Below are positions 5,478-53,038 of a stretch of 64,000 bases of DNA, in pieces. Made by a program: the position numbers and the translations under genes. The notes under the pieces are model-generated. The model made no database searches, was not told where the DNA came from, and worked only from the letters and a program-made list of their open reading frames with translations. How positions within the stretch are numbered: position 1 is the stretch's first letter; the number at the start of each line of letters is the position of its first letter. Source of the DNA: an uncultured bacterium (GTDB lineage Bacteria > Actinomycetota > Acidimicrobiia > Spongiisociales > ZC4RG35); assembly GCA_963745865.1 (NCBI GenBank), contig CAVUYZ010000002.1, positions 101,514 to 165,513 on the forward strand. Reading direction: 5' to 3'.

Positions 5478-5867
5478 TCAACTCTCGATCGTGCCGGCCG
5501 CCCTGAGCGACGCCTCGAACTGTTCTCGCTCTTCGAGTCTGTGGTAGCGGAGCTCGGTCGCCATCCAGATCGACTTCGACCATGGGTAGAACAGCACGGG
5601 AACGAGGAGGGCCACGGCGATGGTCGCGACGAAGAGGGCATCCCAGGCAACGTCCGGCCATGTCAATGAGATACCGAGGCCGATGGTGCCGAGGACCACG
5701 ATCAGCGTCGCCGCCATATTGATGATCATGGCTCCGACCCAGTATCCGGGCTCGCGCTCGAACATGAAGCCGCACGTCGGACAGTGATCCTTGAGCGCCG
5801 CCCATCCTCGGAAGATGTGGCGGCCACCACGGCGCGGACAGCGCCGAACGATGGCCCGGCCGAGCAT
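5478..5867 (-). CDS. DUF983 family membrane protein
   Basis: CPTCGFMFEREPGYWVGAMIINMAATLIVV; intact. Confidence 0.65.
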   Translation of the reverse strand: MLGRAIVRRCPRRGGRHIFRGWAALKDHCPTCGFMFEREPGYWVGAMIINMAATLIVVLGTIGLGISLTWPDVAWDALFVATIAVALLVPVLFYPWSKSIWMATELRYHRLEEREQFEASLRAAGTIES

Positions 5868-8799: not shown

Positions 8800-9191
8800 C
8801 TGTCTCGGAATGGTTGGAAGGTCTGAGGCTAATGGGTACCGCCGGTCTCGAAAGGGTGTTCGATGGTGCCCTAACCGGAGAGGGGGGAGGGGGGTATACC
8901 TCCCTGGATGTCCCGATATTTTGTTTAGTTATCGGACAGGATGACTGCTTCGAGGCGCTTCCGCGCCGGCCACTAGACATCGAGAACATCGACTCCGAAG
9001 TGTTGGAGGAGCTCCGCAGGTGGGGGATGGTGATGCCGAAGTCGCTTGAGTTGACCGGGATGGGCGCGCGGTATGCGGGTGGATCAAGAGGCGGCGTGTT
9101 GGAGTGAGTTCGCTTTTTATGGAGGAAGGGCCAGACCCCGTTGTGATCTCTGGGATCTGGCCTCTTCATCGTGATTGTGTTGTGAGTGCTT

Positions 9192-10930: not shown

Positions 10931-11005
10931 TAGGCCGCCCGGGACTCGAACCCGGAACCCTCGGATTAAGAGTCCGATGCTCTAGCCAGTTGAGCTAGCG
11001 ACCCG
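10931..11005 (-). tRNA. tRNA-Lys(CTT)
   Basis: Reverse complement GGGTCGCTAGCTCAACTGG...TCGGACTCTTAATCCGA...GGTTCGAGTCCCGG. Confidence 0.85.
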
Positions 11006-11812: not shown

Positions 11813-11886
11813 CGGGTTGTGGCGCAGCTTGGTAGCGCGCCTGCTTTGGGAGCAGGAGGTCGTGGGTTCAAGTCCCACCAACCCGA
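11813..11886 (+). tRNA. tRNA-Pro(TGG)
   Basis: Acceptor CGGGTTG/CAACCCG, anticodon loop TTTGGGA. Confidence 0.85.
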
Positions 11887-11957
11887 CCGATCACCCATCT
11901 CAGTGCTGTCCAGCGAGCTTTCAGCCTCACAGGCCCAGCGATATACTCGGCGGCTCC

Positions 11958-12028
11958 GCGGGTGTAGCTCAATGGTAGAGCCCCAGCCTTCCAAGCTGGT
12001 CATGAGGGTTCGATTCCCTTCACCCGCT
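11958..12028 (+). tRNA. tRNA-Gly(TCC)
   Basis: GCGGGTGTAGCTCAATGGTAGAGC, anticodon loop CTTCCAA, T-arm GGGTTCGATTCCC. Confidence 0.85.
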
Positions 12029-12095
12029 CGAAGAGTGGTCGTTGCCGGCTTGTGGCCGTGATGGCTGCCCCTCGGTAGCATTCCCTCCCCGCCGA

Positions 12096-12168
12096 GCCCC
12101 CGTAGCTCAGTGGACAGAGCAGGAGCCTTCTAAGCTCTTGGTCGGAGGTTCGAATCCTTCCGGGGGCG
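12096..12168 (+). tRNA. tRNA-Arg(TCT)
   Basis: GCCCCCGTAGCTCAGTGGACAGAGC, anticodon loop CTTCTAA, acceptor 3' CGGGGGC. Confidence 0.85.
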
Positions 12169-12210
12169 CAGTAGATTCGCGTCTGCCGAAGGCATCGAAT
12201 CGCTCTCCAT

Positions 12211-12285
12211 GGTGGCCGTAGCTCAGTTGGTTAGAGCGCCAGTTTGTGGAACTGGAGGTCGGGGGTTCAATTCCCCTCGGTCACC
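12211..12285 (+). tRNA. tRNA-His(GTG), with an encoded G at position -1
   Basis: G-GTGGCCGTAGCTCAGTTGGTTAGAGC, anticodon loop TTGTGGA. Confidence 0.85.
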
Positions 12286-14402: not shown

Positions 14403-15670
14403 TTGTCGAAGTTCAGCGAGAGCGGGGAGCTGCTGAAATGCAGCTTCTGCGGTAAGTCGCAGCGGCAGGTCAAGAAATTGATCGCCGGTCCCTGGCGTCT
14501 ACATCTGCGACGAGTGCATCGATCTCTGCAACGAGATCATCGAGGAGGAACTGTCGTCCTCGGAGGAGGTCGGTTTCACCGAGCTCCCCAAGCCCGTCGA
14601 GATCCGCTCCTATCTGAACGAGTACGTGGTAGGCCAGGAGCCGGCCAAGAAGGCCCTCGCCGTCGCTGTGTACAACCACTACAAGCGGGTGCGCACCGGC
14701 GAGCCCCGGCACGACGACGTCGAACTCGCCAAATCGAACATCCTGATGATCGGCCCCACCGGTTCGGGCAAGACCTTCCTGGTCCAGACCCTCGCCCGCC
14801 AGTTGAACGTCCCGATCGCCATCGCCGACGCCACCGCCCTCACCGAGGCCGGCTACGTCGGCGAGGATGTCGAGAACATCCTCCTCAAGCTGATCCAGGC
14901 CGCCGACTACGACGTCAAGCGGGCCGAGCAGGGCATCATCTACATCGACGAGATCGACAAGGTGGCGCGCAAAGGCCGAGAACCCGTCGATCACCCGGGA
15001 CGTGTCCGGCGAGGGCGTCCAGCAGGCGCTATTGAAGATCCTCGAGGGCACCGTTGCCAGCGTGCCGCCGCAGGGCGGCCGCAAGCACCCCCACCAGGAG
15101 TTCATCCAGATCGACACGTCGAACGTGCTGTTCATCTGTGGGGGAGCGTTCGCCGGCCTCGATGACATCATCTCGAACCGGATCGGCGCCAAGCACGTCG
15201 GGTTCGGTGCCGAGGTGCGGTCCAAGAACGATCTCCAGCGCTCCGAGGTGCTCTCGAAGGTGCTCCCCGAGGACCTGATCAAGTTCGGGCTGATCCCCGA
15301 GTTCATTGGCCGTCTCCCGATCGTGGCCACCGTCGAATCGCTCGACAAGGACGCCCTCGTCCAGATCCTCACCGAGCCGCGCAATGCGCTGGTCCGTCAG
15401 TACGCCAGGATGTTCGACATGGACGGCGTCGACCTGGTGTTCACCGACGACTCGCTCGATGCGATCGCCGACCAGGCGATCCTGAGAGGCACCGGAGCCC
15501 GCGGACTGCGTGCGATCCTGGAGGAGGTCCTACTCAACACGATGTTCGACATCCCGTCTCGGGAGGACATCGGACGGGTGGAGATCACCAAGGAAGTGGT
15601 CGAGGAGCGGGTCAACCCGACCCTCGTCCCCCACTCCGAGATCGAGACCCCCCAAGAGCGCTCCGCCTGA
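14403..15670 (+). CDS. clpX: ClpX ATPase, with two frameshifts at about 14490 and 14990
   Basis: [20 protein letters not shown] is the zinc ribbon. [17 protein letters not shown] is the Walker A motif. [13 protein letters not shown] is followed by [15 protein letters not shown]. Confidence 0.9.
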
Positions 15671-15769
15671 CGGAGGGCTGCCCGGCCCATTGCGCTGCAT
15701 CTGACCGGTCGATAAGATGCGGCCTGGCGACGTCGAGCTTGTTTCTCGATGGCGACCCATAACGCACAT

Positions 15770-15924
15770 TCGCCTGTGGTCACAGACTGTGGCTGCATGG
15801 GGCAAACAACTGGGAGACTTCGACCTGTGGTCCGTTAGTTCGGTCACCGAGGAACGCAGCGAGTCAGTGGTGAGACCGGCCCTCCCCAAGCGAGCGGGAA
15901 CAGCTCTAGGGAGGCAACAACGAC
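15770..15924 (+). promoter_or_regulatory. Conserved leader element, copy 1 (candidate SD-sequestering cis-regulatory RNA)
   Basis: CGGTCACCGAGGAACGCAGCGAGTCAGTGGTGAGACCGGCCCTCCCC, then 21 nt, then GGGAGG, 10 nt, ATG. Shared with the copies at 17345, 21398 and 22930. Confidence 0.5.
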
Positions 15925-17164
15925 ATGAGTGCTATTGCACAGCGCAGGGCGGCGGCCGCCGTCGCGATCACAATGCTGCTCGCAGTGCTGCAGTTTGTAC
16001 TGTTTTCGATCAGTCCGATGCCGGCGAGTGCTGTCGGGCACGCGTCGACGTGCCAGGACTCGTCATACTCGAGTTCACTTTCAACTTTGTGAACGGGACG
16101 TCGAGCTCCGGCGACAGACTTCTCGGGACAGCGACTACGAGTTCGACTGGCAACAGCTAACGGTGCAAGCGCAAGACCCAGGAGGCGTTCCATTCCGGGA
16201 ACCGGCGGCTCGGCCACGTTCCGAACGGAGTCCGGTATTGGCGTCGACGCGTTTCGTGCAGGCAGGTCTACACGAACGGCTGGGCGAACAACGGCGGTCA
16301 GACCCGACCAGACCGGTGATCCCAATTGGCGAATCGCCAGCTACAGAACGAGAATACAGTCAGACTTCGAAACGGTGAGACGTCGAGGCACACGACACAC
16401 GTCTCGACTACGTCGACCACACGATCAAGCACGACGTCGACCACGTCGGTTCAAGCACGACGTCGACTACGTCGGGATCAAGCACGACGTCGACTACGTC
16501 GGGATCAAGCACGACGTCGACTACTTCTGGATCGAGCACGACGTCGACGACGGCTCCGACCACCACGACCACACAGCCTGGACTGGGAACCTCGGTGACT
16601 ATGTGTGGATCGATACGAACGCTGACTGCACGCAAGATGGAGGCGAAACTCCCATTGGCCGGGGTTCAGGTGGATCTCTTCAACGATGGGGTTTTGTCGC
16701 CTCGACCTTCACCGACGCCAACGGCAAAGTACGTTTTCGGGAACTTGCTTGCCAGTAGCAGGTACCAGGTGCGCTTCACGCTGACCGATACCCCATCCAC
16801 GGACTACTCGTTCACGCCGGATTGCACGACGGGATACGCCGATGACGTCGACAGCGACGTGACCGCCGCGGTCGGTGTGAATGCAGCCCAGACGAGCTTC
16901 ATCAACCTACCGCTCGGTGTGAGTGATCTGACCTGGGATGCGGGCGTGGTCGCTATAGCGGTCGAGGGGATTCAGATCGAGTCCACGACGACCACGATCG
17001 CTCCAGTGACGACCGACACCCTTGCCGTTCACCGGATTGGACGACTCAGGAGTTCCTGCTGCTCGGCCTCGCCATCATGGTGGCGGGCTCGGCGTTGCTG
17101 TTCGCGGCATCTCGCCGTGAGGACGACGCGGTCGAGTCGCTCTCGACCGTGGACCGCCGACTGA
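15925..17164 (+). CDS. LPXTG-anchored surface protein paralog 1: signal peptide, N-domain, S/T-rich linker, Cna-B/SdrD-B-like domain and LPFTG sorting signal. At least five frameshifts; it may be a pseudogene.
   Basis: MSAIAQRRAAAAVAITMLLAVLQFVLFSISPMPASA. The N-domain pieces DYEFDWQQ and NGTSSSGDRLLGT are homologous to paralog 4. The middle part has GDYVWIDTNADCTQDGG...YQVRFT. The 3' end reads IQIESTTTTIAPVTTDTLPFTG followed by a TM segment and RRED, once two indels are corrected. Confidence 0.5.
16425..16559 (+). repeat. 27-nt coding tandem repeat (about 5 copies) forming the S/T-rich linker
   Basis: Repeating unit CAAGCACGACGTCGACTACGTCGGGAT. Confidence 0.7.
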
Positions 17165-17191
17165 ACTGAATGACCTGTTAGACAAGGATCC

Positions 17192-17223
17192 CAGAGGCCC
17201 GGAGCAATCGCTCCGGGCCTCTG
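17192..17223 (+). terminator. Hairpin terminator after paralog 1
   Basis: CAGAGGCCCGGAGC-aatc-GCTCCGGGCCTCTG, a perfect 14-bp stem. Confidence 0.6.
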
Positions 17224-17344
17224 TCTCGTCCTGTTCGCCACTTCTCGAGAGAATGCCCGGCATGCGGAGCACTTGGGCCTATCTAGTCACCTTGAGTAGA
17301 AGCGCCAATGGCCCTGTCGCGGATCTTGCAAGATCACCCCGCGG

Positions 17345-17510
17345 TGTTACAAAGAGTGGTGTGGGACCACAGAGCGTGGTTGTACGGGGTAAACAACTGG
17401 GAGACTTTGACCTGCGGTCCGTTAGTTCGGTCACCGAGGAACGCAGCGAGTCAGTGGTGAGACCGGCCCTCCCCAAGTGAGCGGGTACAGCTTCAGGGAG
17501 GCAATTCGAG
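17345..17510 (+). promoter_or_regulatory. Conserved leader element, copy 2
   Basis: Same core as copy 1. It also has an upstream TGTGGGACCACA palindrome and a TTACAA box. Confidence 0.5.
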
Positions 17511-20500
17511 ATGAGTTCCATGGCACAGCGCAGGACGGCAGCCGCCGCTGCGATCACAATGCTGTTTGCAGTACTGCAATACGTACTGCTCTCAGTCAGT
17601 CCAATGCCGGCGTTCGCTGCGACCGAATTGGGCGGGACGGTCGAAATCGTTCGTCGATATCACGGGACCAAATGATGGGGGGTCGGACGCCCGGCCAGAA
17701 CCCTCAGTATGTCGAGGGTGATGTGATCCCGCTGTCGTTATGGGTCATGGAGCGGTGACTGCGAACAATACGAGTTCACTGCCTGCTTCGATTACGCGGC
17801 CCCAAATGGTGCACACGCCTCAGGCAGATCGCGCATAGTCAAACGGATTATGTCGTGCCGCCGAGGATGTTTGGACTGGCTTCGAGGTCGAACCAGACGG
17901 TGATGTCATCTTCCTGTTCGCTTGGCTCCGAGGCACCAACGTCGGTGAAGTGATACATCTATCTGCCCCTTCAACGAGGAGCCGAAGGTCGCAGCGGCGA
18001 CAGGTCATCGGTCGAATCATGACTGCGGACGCAAAGGCGATCACCGTTCAATCTACTCGACTGAGCTGGGCGACAAGATGGGGCAACTGAGAGCCCCATC
18101 ACGTCATATGCGGACACCGCGATCGGGATCTGATAACAAGTTCGGCGAGGTTGCACTGAACTGCTGGATGCCGGCGTCTGCCTCGTGACCGGTGCGACAG
18201 CTTCCTGGCAACGTCCGTCATCACGGAAACTGGCCAGGGCAACGCCGAGCCAACGCTGTTCGATTATGTAGCTGTTGGGCCGCTGGAGTTCACTTCGTGC
18301 AGCACGATCACCGTGATCAAGAAGACTGAGCGTCAGCTGGTCTCTCCGGGACTTCACGTTCGATCTGAGTGCGGCCGACGACGGTCATCGGACGGCGCCC
18401 TCGACGGTGACGGTGACTCCTACGTGGTGAACGACGTCCTGCCCGGGACGTACTCGCTCTCAGAAGACGACCCATCAGCCCAGCTGTTCGCCCTCGAGTC
18501 GATCGTGTGCGACGACGTCGATGTGGCTCGGTTCGACCTGTCGCTGTGCGGCGTCAACTTCAGTCCCACGGGACGTCAGCATCATCACCAACTCGAGCAC
18601 TGCTCCTGGTGCGATTTCGGTTGACAAGGATGCGTCGGTGTCGTCGGTGACGGCGCCGGGTGGTGATGTGACCTATACGGTGACGGTGACGAATACGTCG
18701 AGTCCGTCTCAGGGTGTGACGATCACCAAGATCGACGATGACAAGTTTGGTGTGATCTGGGATACGGCCACTGATTCGGGAATGGCTGCTGCGGATACGA
18801 CGTGTGACACCGAGTTGGGTGCTGACGGCAGGTATTTGGCTGCGGCTACCGATTCGTTCTCGTGCACCTTTGTTGGTTCGGTGACCGGTAATGCTGGTGA
18901 CACGCACACCAACATCGTGACGGGTTCGGGTGTCGATGATCTCGACAATCCGGTGTCGGATACGGGTACCGAGTCTGTGCGGGTGATCGCTGATCAGGTG
19001 ACGGTGACCATCCAGCCGGGTTCGTGCTACTACGACGGAGGCTCGTTCACGCCGGTGACGGTGACGATCGATCCTGACTCGGGTGCGACGGTCGAGCTGA
19101 AGGATGGTTCGACGGTTGTCGCGACGTTCTCGGGGACTGGCGGGTCTGAGGATCTGGCTCCTGGCACCTATGACGTGGTGGTGACGACTGCTGACAACTT
19201 CGAGTTGGTTGGCGACGTCCCCGAAACGGTCACAGTCGGCGAATGTGCTCCTGGTGCGATTTCGGTTGACAAGGATGCGTCGGTGTCGTCGGTGACGGCG
19301 CCGGGTGGTGATGTGACCTATACGGTGACGGTGACGAATACGTCGAGCCCGTCTCAGGGTGTGACGATCACCAAGATCGACGATGACAAGTTTGGTGTGA
19401 TCTGGGATACGGCCACTGATTCGGGAATGGCTGCTGCGGATACGACGTGTGACACCGAGTTGGGTGCTGACGGCAGGTATTTGGCTGCGGCTACCGATTC
19501 GTTCTCGTGCACCTTTGTTGGTTCGGTGACCGGTAATGCTGGTGACACGCACACCAACATCGTGACGGGTTCGGGTGTCGATGATCTCGACAATCCGGTG
19601 TCGGATACGGGCACCGAGTCTGTGCGGGTGATCGCTGATCAGGTGACGGTGACCATCCAGCCGGGTTCGTGCTACTACGACGGAGGCTCGTTCACGCCGG
19701 TGACGGTGACGATCGATCCTGACTCGGGTGCGACGGTCGAGCTGAAGGATGGTTCGACGGTTGTCGCGTCGTTCTCGGGGACTGGCGGGTCTGAGGATCT
19801 GGCTCCTGGCACCTATGACGTGGTGGTGACGACTGCTGACAACTTCGAGTTGGTTGGCGACGTCCCCGAAACGGTCACAGTCGGCGAATGTGCTCCTGGT
19901 GCGATTTCGGTTGACAAGGATGCGTCGGTGTCGTCGGTGACGGCGCCGGGTGGTGATGTGACCTATACGGTGACGGTGACGAATACGTCGAGCCCGTCTC
20001 AGGGTGTGACGATCACCAAGATCGACGATGACAAGTTTGGTGTGATCTGGGATACGGCCACTGATTCGGGAATGGCTGCTGCGGATACGACGTGTGACAC
20101 CGAGTTGGGTGCTGACGGCAGGTATTTGGCTGCGGCTACCGATTCGTTCTCGTGCACCTTTGTTGGTTCGGTGACCGGTAATGCTGGTGACACGCACACC
20201 AACATCGTGACGGGTTCGGGTGTCGATGATCTCGACAATCCGGTGTCGGATACGGGTACCGAGTCTGTGCGGGTGATCGCTGATCAGGTGACGGTGACCA
20301 TCCAGCCGGGTTCGTGCTACTACGACGGAGGCTCGTTCACGCCGGTGACGGTGACGATCGATCCTGACTCGGGTGCGACGGTCGAGCTGAAGGATGGTTC
20401 GACGGTTGTCGCGACGTTCTCGGGGACTGGCGGGTCTGAGGATCTGGCTCCTGGCACCTATGACGTGGTGGTGACGACTGCTGACAACTTCGAGTTGGTT

Positions 20501-21178
20501 GGCGATGTCCCCGAAACGGTCACAGTCGGCGACTGCACGCCGCCTCCGACCACGACCACTACGACGCGACCTGCGGCGACGGGTTCGATCGGTGACTACG
20601 TCTGGCTGGATGCAAATGCTGATGGACATCAGGGCGACTTCGAGCTTCCTCTCGAGGGAGTGAAGGTCGAACTGCTCGACAGCAACGGTGCGGTCTTGGC
20701 AACGACCACAACCAACGCCAACGGTGGGTATTTGTTCGACGGCCTCGCCGCCGGCACCTACCAGGTCCGGTTCACCATCGCTGACGACCCGAACGATCAG
20801 ACAAACCTGACATTTGGGCCGGCGCTGGCGGATGGCGTGCCTGTTGATCGAAACAGTGACGCCACGGACATCGGCGGGGACGATGCCGACGATGTCGGCG
20901 TCACCGGTTCGATCTTCCTGCAGCCCGGTCAGGATGACCTGACGTGGGATGCCGGAGTGATTGCCGTGGCGGTCCAAGGGATTCAGATCGAGTCCACGAC
21001 GACCACGATCGCTCCAGTGACGACCGACACACTGCCGTTCACCGGGTTCGAGAGCCAGGAACTGGCGATTCTCGGCCTGGTGGTGTTGGCGGCGGGCGGA
21101 ATGCTGCTGTTTACAGCGGCTCGCCGCGAAGATGAGGAGGCGGCGACGGAGACCACGGGGACGTGGTCGAGTCTCTGA
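17511..21178 (+). CDS. Large LPXTG-anchored surface protein paralog 2 with 3 DUF11-like repeats and an SdrD-B-like domain. The 5' ~1 kb has several frameshifts. 18521-21178 is one clean 885-aa frame.
   Basis: MSSMAQRRTAAAAAITMLFAVLQYVLLSVSPMPAFA; GDGDSYVVNDVLPGTYSLSEDDPS; three copies of ISVDKDASVSSVTAPGGDVTYTVTVTNTS; GDYVWLDANADGHQGD...YQVRFT; LPFTG followed by a TM segment and ARRED. Confidence 0.7.
18591..20535 (+). repeat. Three tandem copies of a 645-bp unit (about 99.5% identical), in frame within paralog 2
   Basis: The same 215-aa block appears three times with only 2-3 substitutions. Confidence 0.9.
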
Positions 21179-21201
21179 CTCCGAGCCGGTATCGGAAGAC
21201 T

Positions 21202-21234
21202 GAGGCGGCCCCGGGTTCAACCCGGGGCCGTCTC
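21202..21234 (+). terminator. Hairpin terminator after paralog 2
   Basis: GAGGCGGCCCCGGG-ttcaa-CCCGGGGCCGTCTC. Confidence 0.55.
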
Positions 21235-21397
21235 GCGACATGCCGCCACCACCACCGCTCTTGTGCTTCCTCATGTCGGAAGCCGATCGGGCTCGGTGGT
21301 GACGTATCGAGAGGTGATGCCTCCGACCCATTGCATGTGGCTAGTCACATCGGGCACACTGCAATGGTCATGCCTCCTCTCTTGTGGGGAGCTGGCA

Positions 21398-21568
21398 AGG
21401 TGTTACAAATAGTGGTGTGCGACCACAGAGCGTGGTTGCACGGGGCAAACGATTGGGCGACTTCGACCTGCGGTCCGTTAGATCGGTCACCGAGGAACGC
21501 AGCGAGTCAGTGGTGAGACCGGCCCTCCCCGAAACAAGCGGGCCATGAGGTCAGGGAGGCATCCATTA
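21398..21568 (+). promoter_or_regulatory. Conserved leader element, copy 3
   Basis: The core CGGTCACCGAGGAACGCAGCGAGTCAGTGGTGAGACCGGCCCTCCCC is identical to copies 1 and 2. GGGAGG lies 9 nt before the ATG. Confidence 0.5.
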
Positions 21569-22758
21569 ATGAGTGCTATGGCGCAACGCAGAACGGCGGC
21601 AGCCGCTGCGATCACGATGATGTTTGCGGTACTGCAATTAGTGCTGTTCGCGACGAATCCGGTCCCGGCAGGCGCTGCAGAGGACAACCCCGGCCCCGCC
21701 GAGTCGGTGTGCCCGATTCCTGATGCCGAAGGTGTCGTGGCGCGGGTTCTCAACAAGGGTGGCTACATCTATGCCAACTTGACCGCGGATGACGCTGATA
21801 CAGGTCCCTTCGACATCTCGCTCGCAGCTGGCGTATACGACGTGTCCCTGACGAGCTGGGACAACCACACGGGCCGGACACCAGACCCGTCGCAGACCCA
21901 AGAGCAGTATTTGTCCAGGGTTGGTTCGAAGGATCCAAAGTCTGGACGTCTTCTACGATCGATGACTTACCGGATGATCAAGACATCCTGACTCAGCTTG
22001 TCGATTCGGGCGTGACTGTTCCCGAGCTAGACGAGGTCGGGGCTGTGCACGCTGCCTACCCATCCGACATCGGCAACTCTCACCAGCCGGTGTGCGTGGT
22101 GTTCGTTCCGACCAAGACGACCACGACGACGGAGGCGACGACGACCACGACGACGGAGGCGACGACGACCACGACGACGGAGGCGACGACGACCACGACG
22201 ACGGAGGCGACGACGACCACGGCTCCGAGGACTTCGACCACGGTGGAGTCGGCAGTAGGGGCGATCGTGATCGAGAAGAGCGCCCCCCTGGCCGATGGAG
22301 ACACGTTCGTCTTCACTCTTGACGATGACCGTTTCGTTCTCCAGGACGGCGGTTCAGAGACGTTTGGCAATCTCGACCCGGGGACATACCTCGCCAGCGA
22401 GTTCAATGGATCCGCGTGGGGCCTGACGACCATTGCGTGCGACAATGGCTCGGCGGGCACGATTGCCGATGATGGGTCCGAGGGCAGTGTCTCGATCGAC
22501 CTGGAAGCCGGAGAGACCGTGACCTGCGTGTTCTCCAACGCGCCGGTCGAGGTCCTGGGGATTCAGATCGAGTCCACGACGACCACCATCGCTCCAGTGA
22601 CGACCGACACCCTGCCCTTCACCGGGTTCGAGAGCCAGGAACTGGCGATTCTCGGACTGGTGGTGTTGGCGGCGGGTGGCGTGCTGCTCTTCGCAGCGAC
22701 ACGTCGTGAAGAGGATGACCTCGTGACCGAGGTCGTCGGAAGCTGGTCTCGCGACTGA
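21569..22758 (+). CDS. LPXTG-anchored surface protein paralog 3, with one frameshift at about 21925
   Basis: MSAMAQRRTAAAAAITMMFAVLQLVLFATNPVPAGA; four copies of TTTTTTEA; IQIESTTTTIAPVTTDTLPFTGFESQELAILGLVVLAAGG. Confidence 0.75.
22117..22212 (+). repeat. Four copies of a 24-nt coding repeat (TTTTTTEA)
   Basis: ACGACGGAGGCGACGACGACCACG repeated. Confidence 0.7.
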
Positions 22759-22786
22759 TCGAGCGCCCGCTCGGAGACAACTGGAA

Positions 22787-22810
22787 GGGCCCCGGGTTCG
22801 CCCGGGGCCC
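22787..22810 (+). terminator. Hairpin after paralog 3
   Basis: GGGCCCCGGG-ttcg-CCCGGGGCCC. Confidence 0.5.
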
Positions 22811-22929
22811 ATCCGCGTCCGATGGTCTCGTTGGAAGTGACACAGGACTCTTGAGTGGTCCTGGGGCTGGAGCTACACCGAGTGGTGAAGACGCCACAGA
22901 TAGTGGCGAATGGGGCTCTCAGGGCGACG

Positions 22930-23028
22930 AAGACCCGTGGCCTGGTAGATCGGTCACCGCAGGCCACAGCGAGTCAATGGTGAGACCGGCCCTCCCCAGA
23001 GATGAGCGAAAGCTCGGGGAGGCACGAA
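22930..23028 (+). promoter_or_regulatory. Conserved leader element, copy 4 (diverged)
   Basis: CGGTCACCGCAGGCCACAGCGAGTCAATGGTGAGACCGGCCCTCCCC, then GGGGAGG 7 nt before the ATG. Confidence 0.45.
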
Positions 23029-24189
23029 ATGGGTGCCACGACACAGCGCAGGCTGGCAGGCATCGCTGCACTGCTACTCCTGCTGACAGCACTGCAACTG
23101 GTGGTGTCGGCGAATTCGAGACCGGCGCTCGCCGCCGACCAACCGACGCTCGTCGAAGGGAACCCGACCTGCGCCGATTTCGGCTCGTACGAGCTGAGGC
23201 TCAAGATCGAGGCGGGCGATGAGCTGGACGACGGCAACTCCGGCGAATACGTCTCGGGCGACCTTGATTGTCGACGTCGACATCTACGAGACATCCGCCG
23301 GATGGGAGTTCGACTGGTCCGCAAACCACGACGTTGGAATCGTCGTTGCCAAGGGAGGTCCGGTAGCGAACCTCTACACGTACGAAGGCGCACAGAGTGA
23401 CTCCGGTTTGCATGCTCCGTTCAATTCCAACAGTGGGAGTTGGTACGGGCTGAGTCACATCTCGTTCTGCACGAGCACCAGCGATGACACACTCCGGGCA
23501 CGGATGACACGACGCCGGGGACAGATGACACGACTCCCGGCACGGATGCCACCACTCCGGTGACGAACGAAACCACGCCTGAAACCCGGGCCACGACACC
23601 TGCGACGTTGCCGCTCCTCGGGGCGATCGGAGACTTCGTGTGGTTCGATGCAGATCGGAACGGGCAACAGGACGACCCGGCGATCGAGATCCCGGTTCTC
23701 GGGGCAACTGTTGAACTCCTCGAGCCGTCGGGAACGGTGCTTGCCACCCAGCTGACCGGAGCCGATGGGCTGTACCTGTTCGACGGTCTCCCGGCCGGGA
23801 ACTATCGGGTTCAGGTGACGTATCAAGGAGCCGCATACACGCTTCCGAGGGCTTCGGGCGTTTCCAATGATCGGAACAGCGACGTGGATCCACTGGGCAA
23901 CGGCATCGGACGCACGGCCTTGATCAGTCTCGATGCGGGAGAAGTGGACCTGACGTGGGACGCCGGAATCGTCGTCGAGGTGTTGGCCGCCCAGATCGAG
24001 TCCACGACAACGACGATCGCAGTCGAACCGGTCGTCGTTGACACCCTGCCGTTCACAGGTTCCGATGTGGACCAGACGATCGCGCTTGCGATGATAATGA
24101 TCGTCGCCGGTGCCCTCTTGCTGCGTGCTGCATCCCGGCGGGAGGAAGAGACAATGTCCGACGTGACGGGGAGGTGGTCGAACGCCTGA
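23029..24189 (+). CDS. LPXTG-anchored surface protein paralog 4, with two frameshifts at about 23280 and 23500
   Basis: MGATTQRRLAGIAALLLLLTALQLVVSANSRPALA; AGWEFDWSANHD; three copies of PGTDDTT; GDFVWFDADRNGQQDD...YRVQVT; LPFTGSDVDQT followed by a TM segment and SRREE. Confidence 0.75.
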
Positions 24190-24222
24190 ACTTGGGATGT
24201 TCCTGAGGGATAGTCTACGACG

Positions 24223-24260
24223 AGTGGTTCCGCGATTTCAACGGAGATCGCGGAACCACT
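24223..24260 (+). terminator. Hairpin terminator after paralog 4
   Basis: AGTGGTTCCGCGAT-ttcaacggag-ATCGCGGAACCACT, a 14-bp stem. Confidence 0.55.
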
Positions 24261-24285
24261 GTGTGAGGTTCTACGTCGAACTCGC

Positions 24286-24951
24286 ATGACAACCATCACA
24301 CCAAACATCCGGGCAATCGCTGCGGCGATGTGCCTTTCCATTCTGCTGGCGGCGTGCAGCGCCGACGCATCATTGGCACGACTGTGCCGACGACGGATGG
24401 CCAGCCGACCACGACGACAACCCCACCTCCCCCGACGACTACTTCACCACCACGACGACAACTCCGACAACGGGAGCGCCGTCGACGACGACGCCGACCG
24501 CCGACGGGGAGATGTCGACGGCTGCCCGAGCCACCATCGAAGAGATCGAGAACGCCGCCAGATCAGGAGATCTCCTGCGGCTCGCCGAGCTCGCATTGTC
24601 GGGCGATGTGCTGTTCACGGCCTCGTTCGGGCAGGAGTTCTCCGACCCCGCCGAGCTGGCTGCGTACTGGGAAGGCATCGAAGGACCGTCGATCCCGGAG
24701 GTGATTCTCGGCCTGCTCGATGCCGGCTACACCCAGACCCTCGCAGCTATGAAGATGGCACGCAAGTCGCCATCCACGTTACCCCTGCAGTCATGGGAGA
24801 GGATTCCACGGCCGCCGACCGCGCCCGGCTCGAGTCGATCTTCGGGGAGGACACCGTAGCGTCCTGGTACGCCGACGGCATGTACCTGGGTTGGAGGATC
24901 GGGCGTCGACGCCGATGGGAACTGGCGGTTCCTCGTCATCGGCGACTGAGA
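24286..24951 (+). CDS. Hypothetical lipoprotein with a Thr/Pro-rich linker; 2-3 frameshifts
   Basis: MTTITPNIRAIAAAMCLSILLAACS has a lipobox. It is followed by TTTTTPPPPTTT, then ATIEEIENAARSGDLLRLAEL...WRIGIDADGNWRFLVIGD. Confidence 0.55.
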
Positions 24952-24959
24952 GCGGTTGC

Positions 24960-25330
24960 TCCTCCTCGGGGGGACAGGCGAGCGTCAGCGGGACCAGGGG
25001 CTAGTTGCGTGACAATGCCCCCCTGGGTTCGCGGGCGAACCCGGTCCCCCCTGCGGAGGGACAAACAACGACAATGCCCCCCTTTCCCCCCGGGGTTCAG
25101 CACGACGAACCCTGTCCCCCCTGCGGAGGGAGAGACAACGACGATGCCCCCCTGTCCCCCTGCGGAGGGACAAACGCACGACAATGCCCCCCTGGGTTCG
25201 CAGGGCGAACCCGTGTCCCCCCTGCGGAGGGACAAACAATGACGAGAGAACCCTGTTCTCCGTGCGGAGGGACAAACAGGGGACGAACAAACCCTGCGAA
25301 TTGGCGGAAGGGGGACGGTTGGGGATGTTG
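24960..25330. repeat. Cluster of alternating GC-rich palindromic repeats (hairpin A and hairpin B); not a CRISPR array
   Basis: Hairpin A is GTCCCCCCTGCGGAGGGACAAAC; hairpin B is GGGTTCGCGGGCGAACCC. At least 5 copies of A with irregular 17-47 nt spacers that contain further repeats. Confidence 0.6.
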
Positions 25331-29356: not shown

Positions 29357-29779
29357 GTGAGTAGCCTGCCCTCCATGGCACACGAGAACACCTTCATCAT
29401 GGTCAAGCCCGACGGGGTCGCACGCGGATTGGTCGGCGAGGTGATCGGCCGGCTGGAGCGCAAAGGATTCAAACTCGAACGCATCCAGATGGTCAGCCCA
29501 ACCGAGACGATCGCCCGCGAGCACTACGCCGAGCACGTCGACAAGCCCTTCTTTCCCGAGCTCCTCGAGTTCATCACGAGCGGACCGGTCGTAGCGATGG
29601 AGTGGTCTGGCGAGTCGGCAGTGTCCGCCGCTCGGAACCTCATGGGTGCCACCAATCCTGCCGAAGCCACACCGGGATCGATTCGCGGCGACCTTGCGAC
29701 CGTGGTCACCGAGAACATCGTCCACGGCTCCGACTCGACCGCCAGCGCCGAGCGCGAGCTCGCGATCTGGTTTTCGTAG
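29357..29779 (+). CDS. ndk: Nucleoside diphosphate kinase
   Basis: [25 protein letters not shown]...NIVHGSDS. Confidence 0.9.
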
Positions 29780-49189: not shown

Positions 49190-49429
49190 GCTCGACCCCT
49201 TGGCTTGGTGATGCAGCGTTTACCTCGGCCGTGGCGGCCTCGTCAAATCCCCCGTTGCGCTTGTCTCGACGTCATGAGTCGTTTGTTCCTCCGGCGGGAG
49301 GGGTTGTACACGAACCAACGAATGCACTTGTTCTGGCTTCGATCATTGTTTGTCCCTCCGGCGGGGGGACGGGGTTCGTCCTACGAACCCAGGGGGCGTT
49401 GTCGCGGATCCCCCGGCGAACTCAGGGGG
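49190..49429. repeat. Second locus of the hairpin A / hairpin B palindromic repeat family, in inverted orientation
   Basis: GTTTGTCCCTCCGGCGGGGGGAC and GTTTGTTCCTCCGGCGGGAGGGG, plus GGGGTTCGTCCTACGAACCC. Compare with the locus at 24960-25330. Confidence 0.55.
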
Positions 49430-52663: not shown

Positions 52664-53038
52664 GTCTCACAGAACAGCGAATCTCACGACATCGCCCGTA
52701 TCGCCGCCGACGCGCTCGACGACAAGAAGGGGTCCGACATCGTGCTCCTCGACGTTGGCGACCTGCTCTCCATCACCGAGGTCTTCGTGATCGCAACGGG
52801 GAACGCTCGTCCCCATGTCAAGACACTCGCTGAAACGGTGGTCGAGAAGCTGAGGGATCACGATCGGAGGCCGCTCCGGTCGGAAGGCGAAGCAGAAGCC
52901 GAATGGATTCTGTTGGACTACGGCGACTTCGTAGTGCATGTGTTCCAGGAGACGCCGAGGGATTTCTATGGTCTCGAGCGATTGTGGGGAGACGCACCCC
53001 GGGTCGCGTGGGAGGCGACTGTCGCCTCCGAGGGCTGA
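52664..53038 (+). CDS. rsfS: Ribosomal silencing factor RsfS (Iojap)
   Basis: KKGSDIVLLDVGDLLSITEVFVIATGNARPHVKTLAE...DYGDFVVHVF; GTG start. Confidence 0.85.
   Translation, partial: VSQNSESHDIARIAADALDDKKGSDIVLLDVGDLLSITEVFVIATGNARPHVKTLAETVVEKLRDHDRRPLRSEGEAEAEWILLDYGDFVVHVFQETPRDFYGLERLWGDAPRVAWEATVASEG

Follow-up and report, generated by a model that had tools for sequence, protein, structure and literature searches.

Four tandem LPFTG surface-protein genes, each behind a predicted c-di-GMP-II-GAG riboswitch, in the clpX-valS interval of an uncultured member of the Acidimicrobiia

The DNA examined here (the window) is a stretch of 64,000 nucleotides (nt) from an uncultured member of the Actinomycetota, placed in the class Acidimicrobiia by ClpX similarity; the C-terminal half of its ClpX shares 80% identity with the one in L001, a metagenome-assembled genome of an uncultured member of that class. 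Four genes for sortase-type surface proteins ending in an LPFTG signal, A to D, occupy the forward strand between the stop codon of clpX (15670) and the end of a hairpin at 24257, and are followed by a lipoprotein-like gene and valS. In front of each gene is a predicted riboswitch aptamer of the cyclic di-GMP (c-di-GMP) class II variant known as c-di-GMP-II-GAG. We consider that the array probably represents four independent, tandem expression units under a ligand-activated translational ON switch. A previous, sequence-only reading of this DNA had correctly placed the four genes between clpX and the lipoprotein and valS genes. It had overlooked the one aptamer ahead of each gene, which among the conserved elements of the block is the most distinctive, and also the frameshifts which interrupt the block genes, clpX, tig and folC.

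A scan of the window against Rfam found RF03169, the c-di-GMP-II-GAG variant of the c-di-GMP-II aptamer (RF01786), at four places. The scores were 54-61 bits against a gathering threshold (GA) of 40, with E values from 1e-9 to 6e-8. All four matches are on the coding strand and their 3' ends are 29-36 nt ahead of the respective ATG codons. They are full-length, and P1, P2 and the pseudoknot are laid out as in RF03169. The signature of the variant, GAG for GCA in the GUG[CA]ACCG core, is present as GUGAGACCG in place of the parent's GUGCAACCG, together with the compensating change of GGGCAC to GGUCAC. Core and pseudoknot partner are GUGAGACCGG and CGGUCACC in the window copies, against GUGCAACCG and UGGGCAC in the consensus of the parent c-di-GMP-II class. 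The likeness to RF03169 comprises a score over the GA, the helices and pseudoknot, the GAG core and a position in the 5' untranslated region (UTR) of the coding strand. The differences are that the outer part of the model's long P1 is unformed, and that there are four copies within 7.2 kb, each with its own candidate expression platform. The four copies were aligned with aptamers of relatives and of metagenomic origin, 38 in all, and RNAalifold recovered both P1 and P2, with double compensatory changes in 12 of the 18 predicted pairs. The pseudoknot strands are invariant across the 38 aptamers and hence uninformative on covariation. P2 of aptamer D departs from that of A-C by compensatory changes. 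Judged by score, signature, helices and position in the 5' UTR, the four leaders are predicted to be c-di-GMP-II-GAG riboswitch aptamers.

The P1 3' strand, CCCUCCCC, is perfectly complementary, as an anti-Shine-Dalgarno (anti-SD) sequence, to the GGGAGG ribosome-binding site, ie the Shine-Dalgarno (SD) sequence, which is located 20-22 nt further 3' and 6-10 nt ahead of each ATG. In minimum free energy (MFE) folds CCCUCCCC pairs with GGGAGG around a small hairpin in five of six leaders. The two elements also change together: the pair is CCCUCCCC/GGGGAGG in the window copies, CCUAUCCC/GGGAUAGG and CCCGUCCC/GGGAUGGG in the related loci L002 and L003, respectively, and CCUGUCCC/GGGAUAGG in about 30 metagenomic leaders. 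A complement of at least 8 bp to the P1 3' strand was found in the leader's own downstream region in 41% of cases, compared with 10% in mismatched leaders.

The mechanism we propose is as follows. Each unit would consist of a weak promoter, a 5' palindromic element, the c-di-GMP-II-GAG riboswitch, the SD, a gene for an LPFTG Ig-fold protein (a putative adhesin) and a GC-rich hairpin, in that order. When the ligand is absent, the P1 3' strand (CCCUCCCC) would pair with the GGGAGG ribosome-binding site and block initiation. Binding of a second messenger, c-di-GMP or a close relative, would stabilise the pseudoknotted aptamer and P1, and the stabilised P1 would withdraw the anti-SD so that translation of the surface protein is turned ON. 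The protein would then leave the cell by the Sec pathway, and a sortase encoded outside the window would attach it to peptidoglycan. With common 5' and 3' modules and different passengers, several surface proteins may in this way be displayed under one signal.

The gene products are putative sortase-substrate surface proteins built like wall-anchored adhesins. Signal peptides, read from the sequence, have a basic n-region, a hydrophobic core and the AxA-type sites PASA|V, PAFA|A, PAGA|A and PALA|A. The signal peptide had been described as shared by the whole family, and this holds for A, B and C, which carry MS(A/S)xAQRRxAAAxAITM, whereas that of D has diverged (MGATTQRRLAGIAALLLLL). The C-terminal sorting module is, as had been stated, common to all four: (I/A)QIESTTTTIA..DTLPFTG, then a hydrophobic segment and a basic tail. 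The LPFTG of B, C and D is followed by some 20 hydrophobic residues and then RRE(E/D); in A the sorting signal is present but is split by two 1-nt insertions. The Pfam model Gram_pos_anchor stayed below threshold (13.5 bits against 20). At the DNA level the leader and signal-peptide regions of the copies are 73-91% identical and the SdrD_B and sorting-signal regions about 83%. The gene ends (leader and signal peptide; SdrD_B and sorting signal) are paralogous, while the passenger regions between them are unrelated.

That lack of relation between the four passengers contradicts the 'YEFDW-type' N-terminal domain which the four proteins had been said to share. Passenger A resembles the protein P0005 of the related locus L202, the 5' part of passenger B resembles an open reading frame (ORF) of L084, passenger C gave no match, and passenger D belongs to a family with the pattern GNPTC...FDW...GLHAP...LSHISFC. 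The SdrD_B and DUF11-like domains that had been assigned to the block are real in part. SdrD_B (PF17210) was found in D (E 7.5e-24), in B (E 1.7e-22) and, just under the GA, in a fragment of A (E 6.6e-6), and the DUF11-like DUF7507 in three stretches of B, but C has no SdrD_B. An intact orthologue of gene D in the related locus L201 (P0001, 376 amino acids (aa)) is 74-78% identical to gene D. In its AlphaFold model a confidently predicted beta-sandwich (about 110 residues, pLDDT about 90) forms the N terminus, and there is an SdrD_B domain. The best matches of the model in the PDB by Foldseek were the adhesins SdrD and UafA, of the MSCRAMM group (microbial surface components recognising adhesive matrix molecules), and Gram-positive pilins, with whole-model TM-scores for SdrD and UafA of 0.21-0.25. 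None of the N-terminal regions had any Pfam match, the N2N3 DEv-IgG ligand-binding region included, and the N-terminal domain of P0001 is a single beta-sandwich.

The coordinates of the features are collected in Table 1. Hairpins begin 24-37 nt past each stop codon and are GC-rich, and none has a U tract. A strong terminator had been claimed for each gene; there is indeed a hairpin after each stop codon, but a scan with consensus promoter and terminator patterns called no hairpin, and no promoter, of the block. Since the U tract is absent and the scan did not call them, the hairpins are described here as GC-rich stem-loops and not as proven terminators.

Table 1. Features of the four units in the window (all on the + strand; aptamers are c-di-GMP-II-GAG, RF03169, GA 40)
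Feature	Position	Strand	Details
Leader motif A	15774..15792	+	inverted repeat + third half-site, CTGTGGTCACAG..GTGG; 3' of weak TTGnnn-N15-TAnnnn promoter-like site
Aptamer A	15804..15890	+	57.5 bits, E 9e-9
Anti-SD A (CCCUCCCC)	15880..15887	+	paired with SD A in MFE fold
SD A (GGGAGG)	15909..15914	+	paired with anti-SD A in MFE fold
Gene A	15925..17169	+	signal peptide, P0005-like N-terminal domain, T/S-rich 27-nt repeats, SdrD_B, LPFTG
Frameshifts in gene A		+	13, by frameshift-aware alignment to P0005
Hairpin 3' of gene A	17193..17222	+	GC-rich, AGAGGCCCGGAGC...GCTCCGGGCCTCT, no U tract
Leader motif B	17356..17379	+	GTGGT-N5-ACCAC-N-GTGG
Aptamer B	17391..17477	+	61.2 bits, E 1e-9; anti-SD 17467-17474; SD 17496-17501
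Gene B	17511..21178	+	signal peptide, L084-like N-terminal region, three 215-aa repeats with DUF7507, SdrD_B, LPFTG
Frameshifts in gene B	17767..18369	+	at least 11, all in first 0.86 kb of gene, by alignment to L084 ORF
Intact 885-aa ORF in gene B	18521..21178	+
Three tandem 645-nt units in gene B	18601..20541	+	about 99.3% identity, no indels
Hairpin 3' of gene B	21207..21229	+	GC-rich
Leader motif C	21412..21435	+	GTGGT-N5-ACCAC-N-GTGG
Aptamer C	21447..21533	+	58.2 bits, E 5.9e-9; anti-SD 21523-21530; SD 21554-21559
Gene C	21569..22758	+	signal peptide, unassigned N-terminal domain, (TTTTTTEA)n linker, weak SpaA-like Ig domain, LPFTG
Frameshift in gene C	near 21915-21990	+	1, minimal-path count
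Hairpin 3' of gene C	22787..22810	+	GC-rich
Leader motif D	22882..22906	+	GTGGT..CCAC..GTGG
Aptamer D	22917..23000	+	54.2 bits, E 6.4e-8; anti-SD 22990-22997; SD 23017-23022
Gene D	23029..24189	+	signal peptide, GNPTC..FDW..LSHISFC beta-sandwich domain, T/P-rich linker, SdrD_B, LPFTG
Frameshifts in gene D	about 23261 and 23490	+	2, by alignment to P0001
Hairpin 3' of gene D	24226..24257	+

Metagenome contigs were scanned with a pattern for the aptamer core, including the GAG signature, and at least 125 aptamers were recovered. Among the matches listed, and with crude picking of ORFs, at least 48 of 80 complete ORFs directly downstream of an aptamer have an LPFTG-type end, and several contigs carry two tandem units. 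When 20 loci were rechecked with Rfam, RF03169 was found in 19. Pfam analysis of 75 downstream ORFs returned mostly SdrD_B, SpaA-type, DUF11 and DUF7601 Ig-like domains, with a few secreted peptidases, twin-arginine translocation (TAT) signal proteins and one family-2 glycosyltransferase. As judged from these domains, the downstream gene set is the classical c-di-GMP output repertoire. In five loci (L104, L126, L131, L165 and L187) the GAG aptamer is followed by genes of a second class, for small proteins of about 180-226 aa which have a twin-arginine signal (..GLSRRDMIKASAAAGAAAWTAP..) and are without a sorting signal.

A number of observations weigh against the reading of the array as ligand-activated ON switches. 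The outer eight pairs of the Rfam P1 model are unformed in the window copies, where P1 is short, and the folding energies of whole leaders are no better than those of shuffled sequence. The ON/OFF logic we infer is drawn from sequence complementarity only, and c-di-GMP as the ligand is an assumption. The nucleotide altered within the GUGCAACCG core is one that reportedly contacts the ligand in the c-di-GMP-II crystal structure. A six-frame search of the 64-kb window with regular expressions for TLxTC, GGDEF and EAL gave no credible match, a weak negative in view of the indel errors described below. The only TLxTC match, at 52752, falls in an apparently non-coding frame, so that the earlier statement that there is no sortase gene in the window holds for any plausible coding frame. 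The LPFTG genes of L001 have leaders without an Rfam match even at E values up to 5. Finally, the density of frameshifts in A and the 5' part of B is about 25 times that in the housekeeping genes of the window, and these shifts are of both signs, compared with four housekeeping shifts (in about 9.5 kb) that are all +1.

The alternative which survives best is that the aptamers are functional but respond to another cyclic dinucleotide, to pGpG or to an unrelated metabolite, in which case the signal would be unlike that of the adhesin switches of the Firmicutes. We regard this as possible, though not probable. To our knowledge, no ligand of the GAG variant has been established or reported. The GAG signature alters the conserved GUGCAACCG core of the parent, and no GGDEF or EAL genes were seen among the 75 downstream ORFs scanned. 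In the abstract of the 2017 PNAS paper of Weinberg et al., such variants are reportedly said to be ones that 'might recognize different bacterial signaling molecules', which we count for a different ligand. Full-text searches of literature that did not include that defining paper turned up no experimental results on what the GAG variant binds. On the other side, the adhesins, pilin-like Ig-fold proteins, secreted peptidases and family-2 glycosyltransferase encoded downstream make up the sort of gene set that is classically under c-di-GMP control (PMC4591827). The aptamer of L092 has the GAG signature and yet scores best with the parent model, and the L111 contig carries a c-di-GMP-I riboswitch as well, beside a GAG-variant class II aptamer (5507-5598 and 8991-9077).

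A further alternative is a switch which acts mainly on transcription (by Rho-dependent or intrinsic attenuation), or one which is OFF with ligand. The small hairpin conserved between the anti-SD and SD (GAGCGGG..CAGCUC) could be read in this way, and the GTGGT/ACCAC element 5' of the aptamer could pair alternatively with the aptamer's GUGGU strand. There is, however, no U-tract terminator between aptamer and ATG, the spacing of the two is just 29-36 nt, and the element which co-varies with the P1 3' strand overlaps the ribosome-binding site. A transcriptional or OFF switch is consequently judged unlikely beside translational control with ligand-dependent release of the SD.

None of the four block genes is an intact ORF in the sequence of the window (numbers of frameshifts in Table 1). 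Housekeeping genes are also affected. There are single-base +1 insertions in tig (12801), clpX (14491 and 14972) and folC (28970), all outside homopolymer runs, although the three broken genes are otherwise 70-88% identical to the intact proteins of L202. Frameshifts were not found in clpP, valS, mreB and mreC. As clpX, tig and folC are also broken, an indel-producing error process certainly exists in the assembly. The dense zone in the block, from 16,072 to 18,369, is one contiguous patch of 2.3 kb with about 1% indels, which spans the boundary between A and B and ends inside B. The rest of B, 2.66 kb with the three 645-nt repeats, is an uninterrupted ORF of 885 aa. Because the patch ignores the gene boundary, and because neutral decay would not be expected to leave the 885-aa ORF intact, we favour an artefact: the dense patch is probably locally unpolished sequence rather than real pseudogenisation.

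Two other sources of the indels were considered and rejected. Phase variation does not fit indels that are outside simple-sequence tracts. Misassembly induced by repeats does not fit either, since the 645-nt repeats are clean and it is unique sequence that is hit, and an unpolished or low-coverage patch therefore fits better. No second assembly was found by a look-up of the exact sequence of the window's ClpP, and blastn of the block against all fetched loci gave nothing above 90% identity.

If the frameshifts were real, A and the 5' part of B at the least, and perhaps the whole array, would be genuinely decaying pseudogenes and the riboswitches relics. Decay is favoured by the frameshift counts, 13 in A and at least 11 over 0.86 kb of B as compared with four in about 9.5 kb of housekeeping genes, and by the mixture of signs. 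Against it, clpX with its two frameshifts makes an error process certain, the indel-dense zone disregards gene boundaries, and 2.66 kb of B is without a frameshift or stop. Once its frame is corrected, A shares 59% identity with P0005, and in score aptamers A and B are on a par with C and D. Decay of the array is in our opinion improbable.

The position between clpX and valS was compared in relatives. The locus L202, on a 1.43-Mb contig, has ClpX, MreB and ValS which are 88%, 98% and 81% identical, respectively, at the amino-acid level, and valS of L201 is 89% identical at the nucleotide level. In L202 the order is tig-clpP-clpX, two units of aptamer and LPFTG gene, then valS-folC-(HDOD/HD)-ndk-mreBCD, and both leaders match RF03169. 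The slot in L201 holds at least two units: the 3' end of an LPFTG gene, an aptamer, the intact gene D orthologue, and valS. The sorting-signal part of that 3' end matches gene C (87% over 70 aa) while its SdrD_B part best matches gene A. In L002 and L003, where ClpX is 73-74% identical, an RF03169 aptamer lies less than 180 nt past clpX and is followed by a gene for a secreted or LPFTG protein. L003 has one unit in the slot, and L002 and L179 at least one each; in L179 the spacing from the tRNA cluster to the aptamer is the same. In L001 (10669-12717) the slot is between clpX and folC, with valS elsewhere, and contains two small LPFTG proteins with long (TTTTTVAP)n linkers and similar leaders containing GGGAGG. 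The more distant L017 has valS directly after clpX, ie an empty slot. The tRNA cluster of the window consists of four genes (11813-12285) just upstream of tig; a further tRNA gene (10931-11004) is on the minus strand. The same cluster precedes tig in L202, L002, L003 and L017.

As LPFTG/riboswitch units occupy the slot in relatives, it is a conserved, variable hot spot, ie an old site for such units whose number and content are lineage-specific, and not a fresh horizontal insertion. The horizontal insertion which had been proposed for the block is at odds with this, since every close relative recovered has LPFTG genes in the same clpX-valS/folC slot. The outcome which that reading had itself named as a refutation, presence of the block at this position in all relatives with unremarkable codon usage, has thus come about in part. 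The comparison of synteny does leave part of the accessory character standing, in that gene content varies between relatives while the slot itself is filled. No integrase- or transposase-like ORF was seen in 15.6-25.4 kb. Nor are there flanking direct repeats or an adjacent tRNA; the repeats are internal paralogous modules and the tRNA cluster is 3.4 kb upstream, before tig.

The codon usage of the block had been taken as a sign of horizontal origin or else of relaxed, niche-specific expression. GC content is 0.59-0.61 at 16-21 kb compared with 0.63-0.65 in the flanks, and GC content at third codon positions (GC3) is 0.69-0.80 in the block compared with 0.78-0.92 in the flanking housekeeping genes. 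The reported bias towards codons ending in G or T is borne out to the extent that GC3 is lower, and codon usage less biased, in the block than in its neighbours, but it is pronounced only in the three 645-nt repeats of B (0.43 G and 0.29 T at third positions), and C and D are close to ordinary. The block is thus below its neighbours, but so are the slot genes of the relatives: GC3 is 0.59-0.61 in L202 (neighbours 0.63-0.71), 0.74-0.78 in L201 (neighbours 0.86) and 0.64 in L003 (neighbours 0.74-0.77). The deficit of about 0.08-0.12 recurs in the slot genes of all three loci and is, for that reason, probably no mark of recent transfer; it would point to a property of the gene class, either weak codon selection or fast turnover, rather than to horizontal origin. 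The idea that the block is an accessory island of sortase-substrate paralogues gained by horizontal transfer, whose expression is relaxed or tied to a niche and not specially regulated, for which the lower GC and GC3 of the block, the variation in gene number and passenger domains among relatives and the empty slot of L017 might be cited, is already largely refuted by synteny and very unlikely, given the same type of unit and class of riboswitch in the slots of L202, L201, L002, L003 and L179, the matching GC3 offset there, the lack of any integrase, flanking repeat or adjacent tRNA, and a dedicated riboswitch for each gene.

A further element lies in the leaders. The motif GTGGT-N4-9-ACCAC-N3-9-GTGG is found about 70 nt 5' of the aptamer core before all four aptamers, and also in L002 and L003, directly 3' of promoter-like sites of the form TTGnnn-N15-17-TAnnnn. 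In its strict form it was present in 24 of 123 metagenome leaders and in 2 of 860 background windows. The ACCAC of the motif could pair with the invariant GUGGU of the aptamer. The motif may serve as the operator of a DNA-binding regulator or, at the RNA level, form a 5' hairpin that can pair in alternative ways. More speculatively, and with little expectation that it will prove right, a GAG aptamer which senses a signal other than c-di-GMP might form, with the GTGGT-N-ACCAC-N-GTGG element, a two-layer switch for a cassette-like LPFTG family in the Acidimicrobiia, in which the shared leader/signal-peptide and sorting-signal modules would be recombination handles for shuffling passengers at the clpX hot spot.

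The region on the valS side of the block has features of its own. A lipoprotein-like ORF at 24286-24950 (lipobox LLAAC|S) is frameshifted, and five copies of a palindromic unit of 40-70 nt (GTCCCCCCTGCGGAGGGAC) follow at 25011-25306, with one further copy at 49352 against 0.07 expected by chance. Weak, sub-threshold Rfam matches to 'whalefall-1' occur on the minus strand in this lipoprotein and palindrome region. The closest relatives, L201 and L202, lack the whole 1.1 kb from 24190 to 25330, and it is therefore this stretch, and not the LPFTG block, that is the window-specific insertion by valS. L202 in turn has a gene for an HDOD+HD protein (15551-16681) between folC and ndk which the window lacks: its folC runs to about 29309 and its ndk begins at 29357.

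Coupling of a second-messenger riboswitch to an anchored surface protein is known in the Firmicutes. In Clostridioides difficile the sortase substrates CD2831 and CD3246 are turned on by c-di-GMP-II riboswitches (PMC4591827), in Paraclostridium tandem c-di-GMP-II riboswitches are located 5' of surface-anchor proteins of COG4932 (PMC9481103), and in Bacillus thuringiensis the c-di-GMP-I riboswitch Bc2 is associated with the collagen adhesin Cap (PMC4933901). The window resembles the CD2831/CD3246 system in having a class II c-di-GMP-type aptamer 5' of genes for wall-anchored putative adhesins, with the ON state predicted at high messenger. It differs in coming from the Actinomycetota (Acidimicrobiia), in the GAG variant of the aptamer and in the sorting signal, LPFTG compared with (S/P)PxTG. 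Control is transcriptional or by ribozyme in C. difficile, whereas sequestration of the SD, ie translational control, is predicted for the window, and a counter-regulated protease like ZmpI was not seen in the window. With the Paraclostridium and Bc2/Cap systems it shares the coupling of a second-messenger riboswitch to an LPXTG or Cna-type adhesin; unlike those systems, which have several aptamers per gene, it has one per gene and four genes in tandem, and the class or variant of the aptamer is different. The proteins themselves are comparable to the staphylococcal MSCRAMM/Sdr proteins SdrD and UafA in their signal peptide, N-terminal beta-sandwich, SdrD_B (CnaB-like) domain, low-complexity wall-spanning linker and LPXTG motif. 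They differ in the low TM-scores given above, in N-terminal domains unrelated in sequence to N2N3 and in the absence of an SD-dipeptide repeat.

The arrangement parallels these Firmicutes systems with a little-studied variant aptamer and in the Acidimicrobiia. One practical caution concerns the assembly: with indels that break even clpX, calls of 'pseudogene' in the sequence of this window are unreliable. The four natural variants of the aptamer, together with the simple anti-SD platform, offer a clean system in which to study the orphan c-di-GMP-II-GAG variant, and the question of its ligand is testable. The logic of the Clostridia and Bacilli, in which a second-messenger riboswitch governs a sortase-anchored adhesin, appears in the poorly studied and mostly uncultured Acidimicrobiia, and the strong association of genes in the metagenomes predicts that the signal controls the composition of the cell surface.

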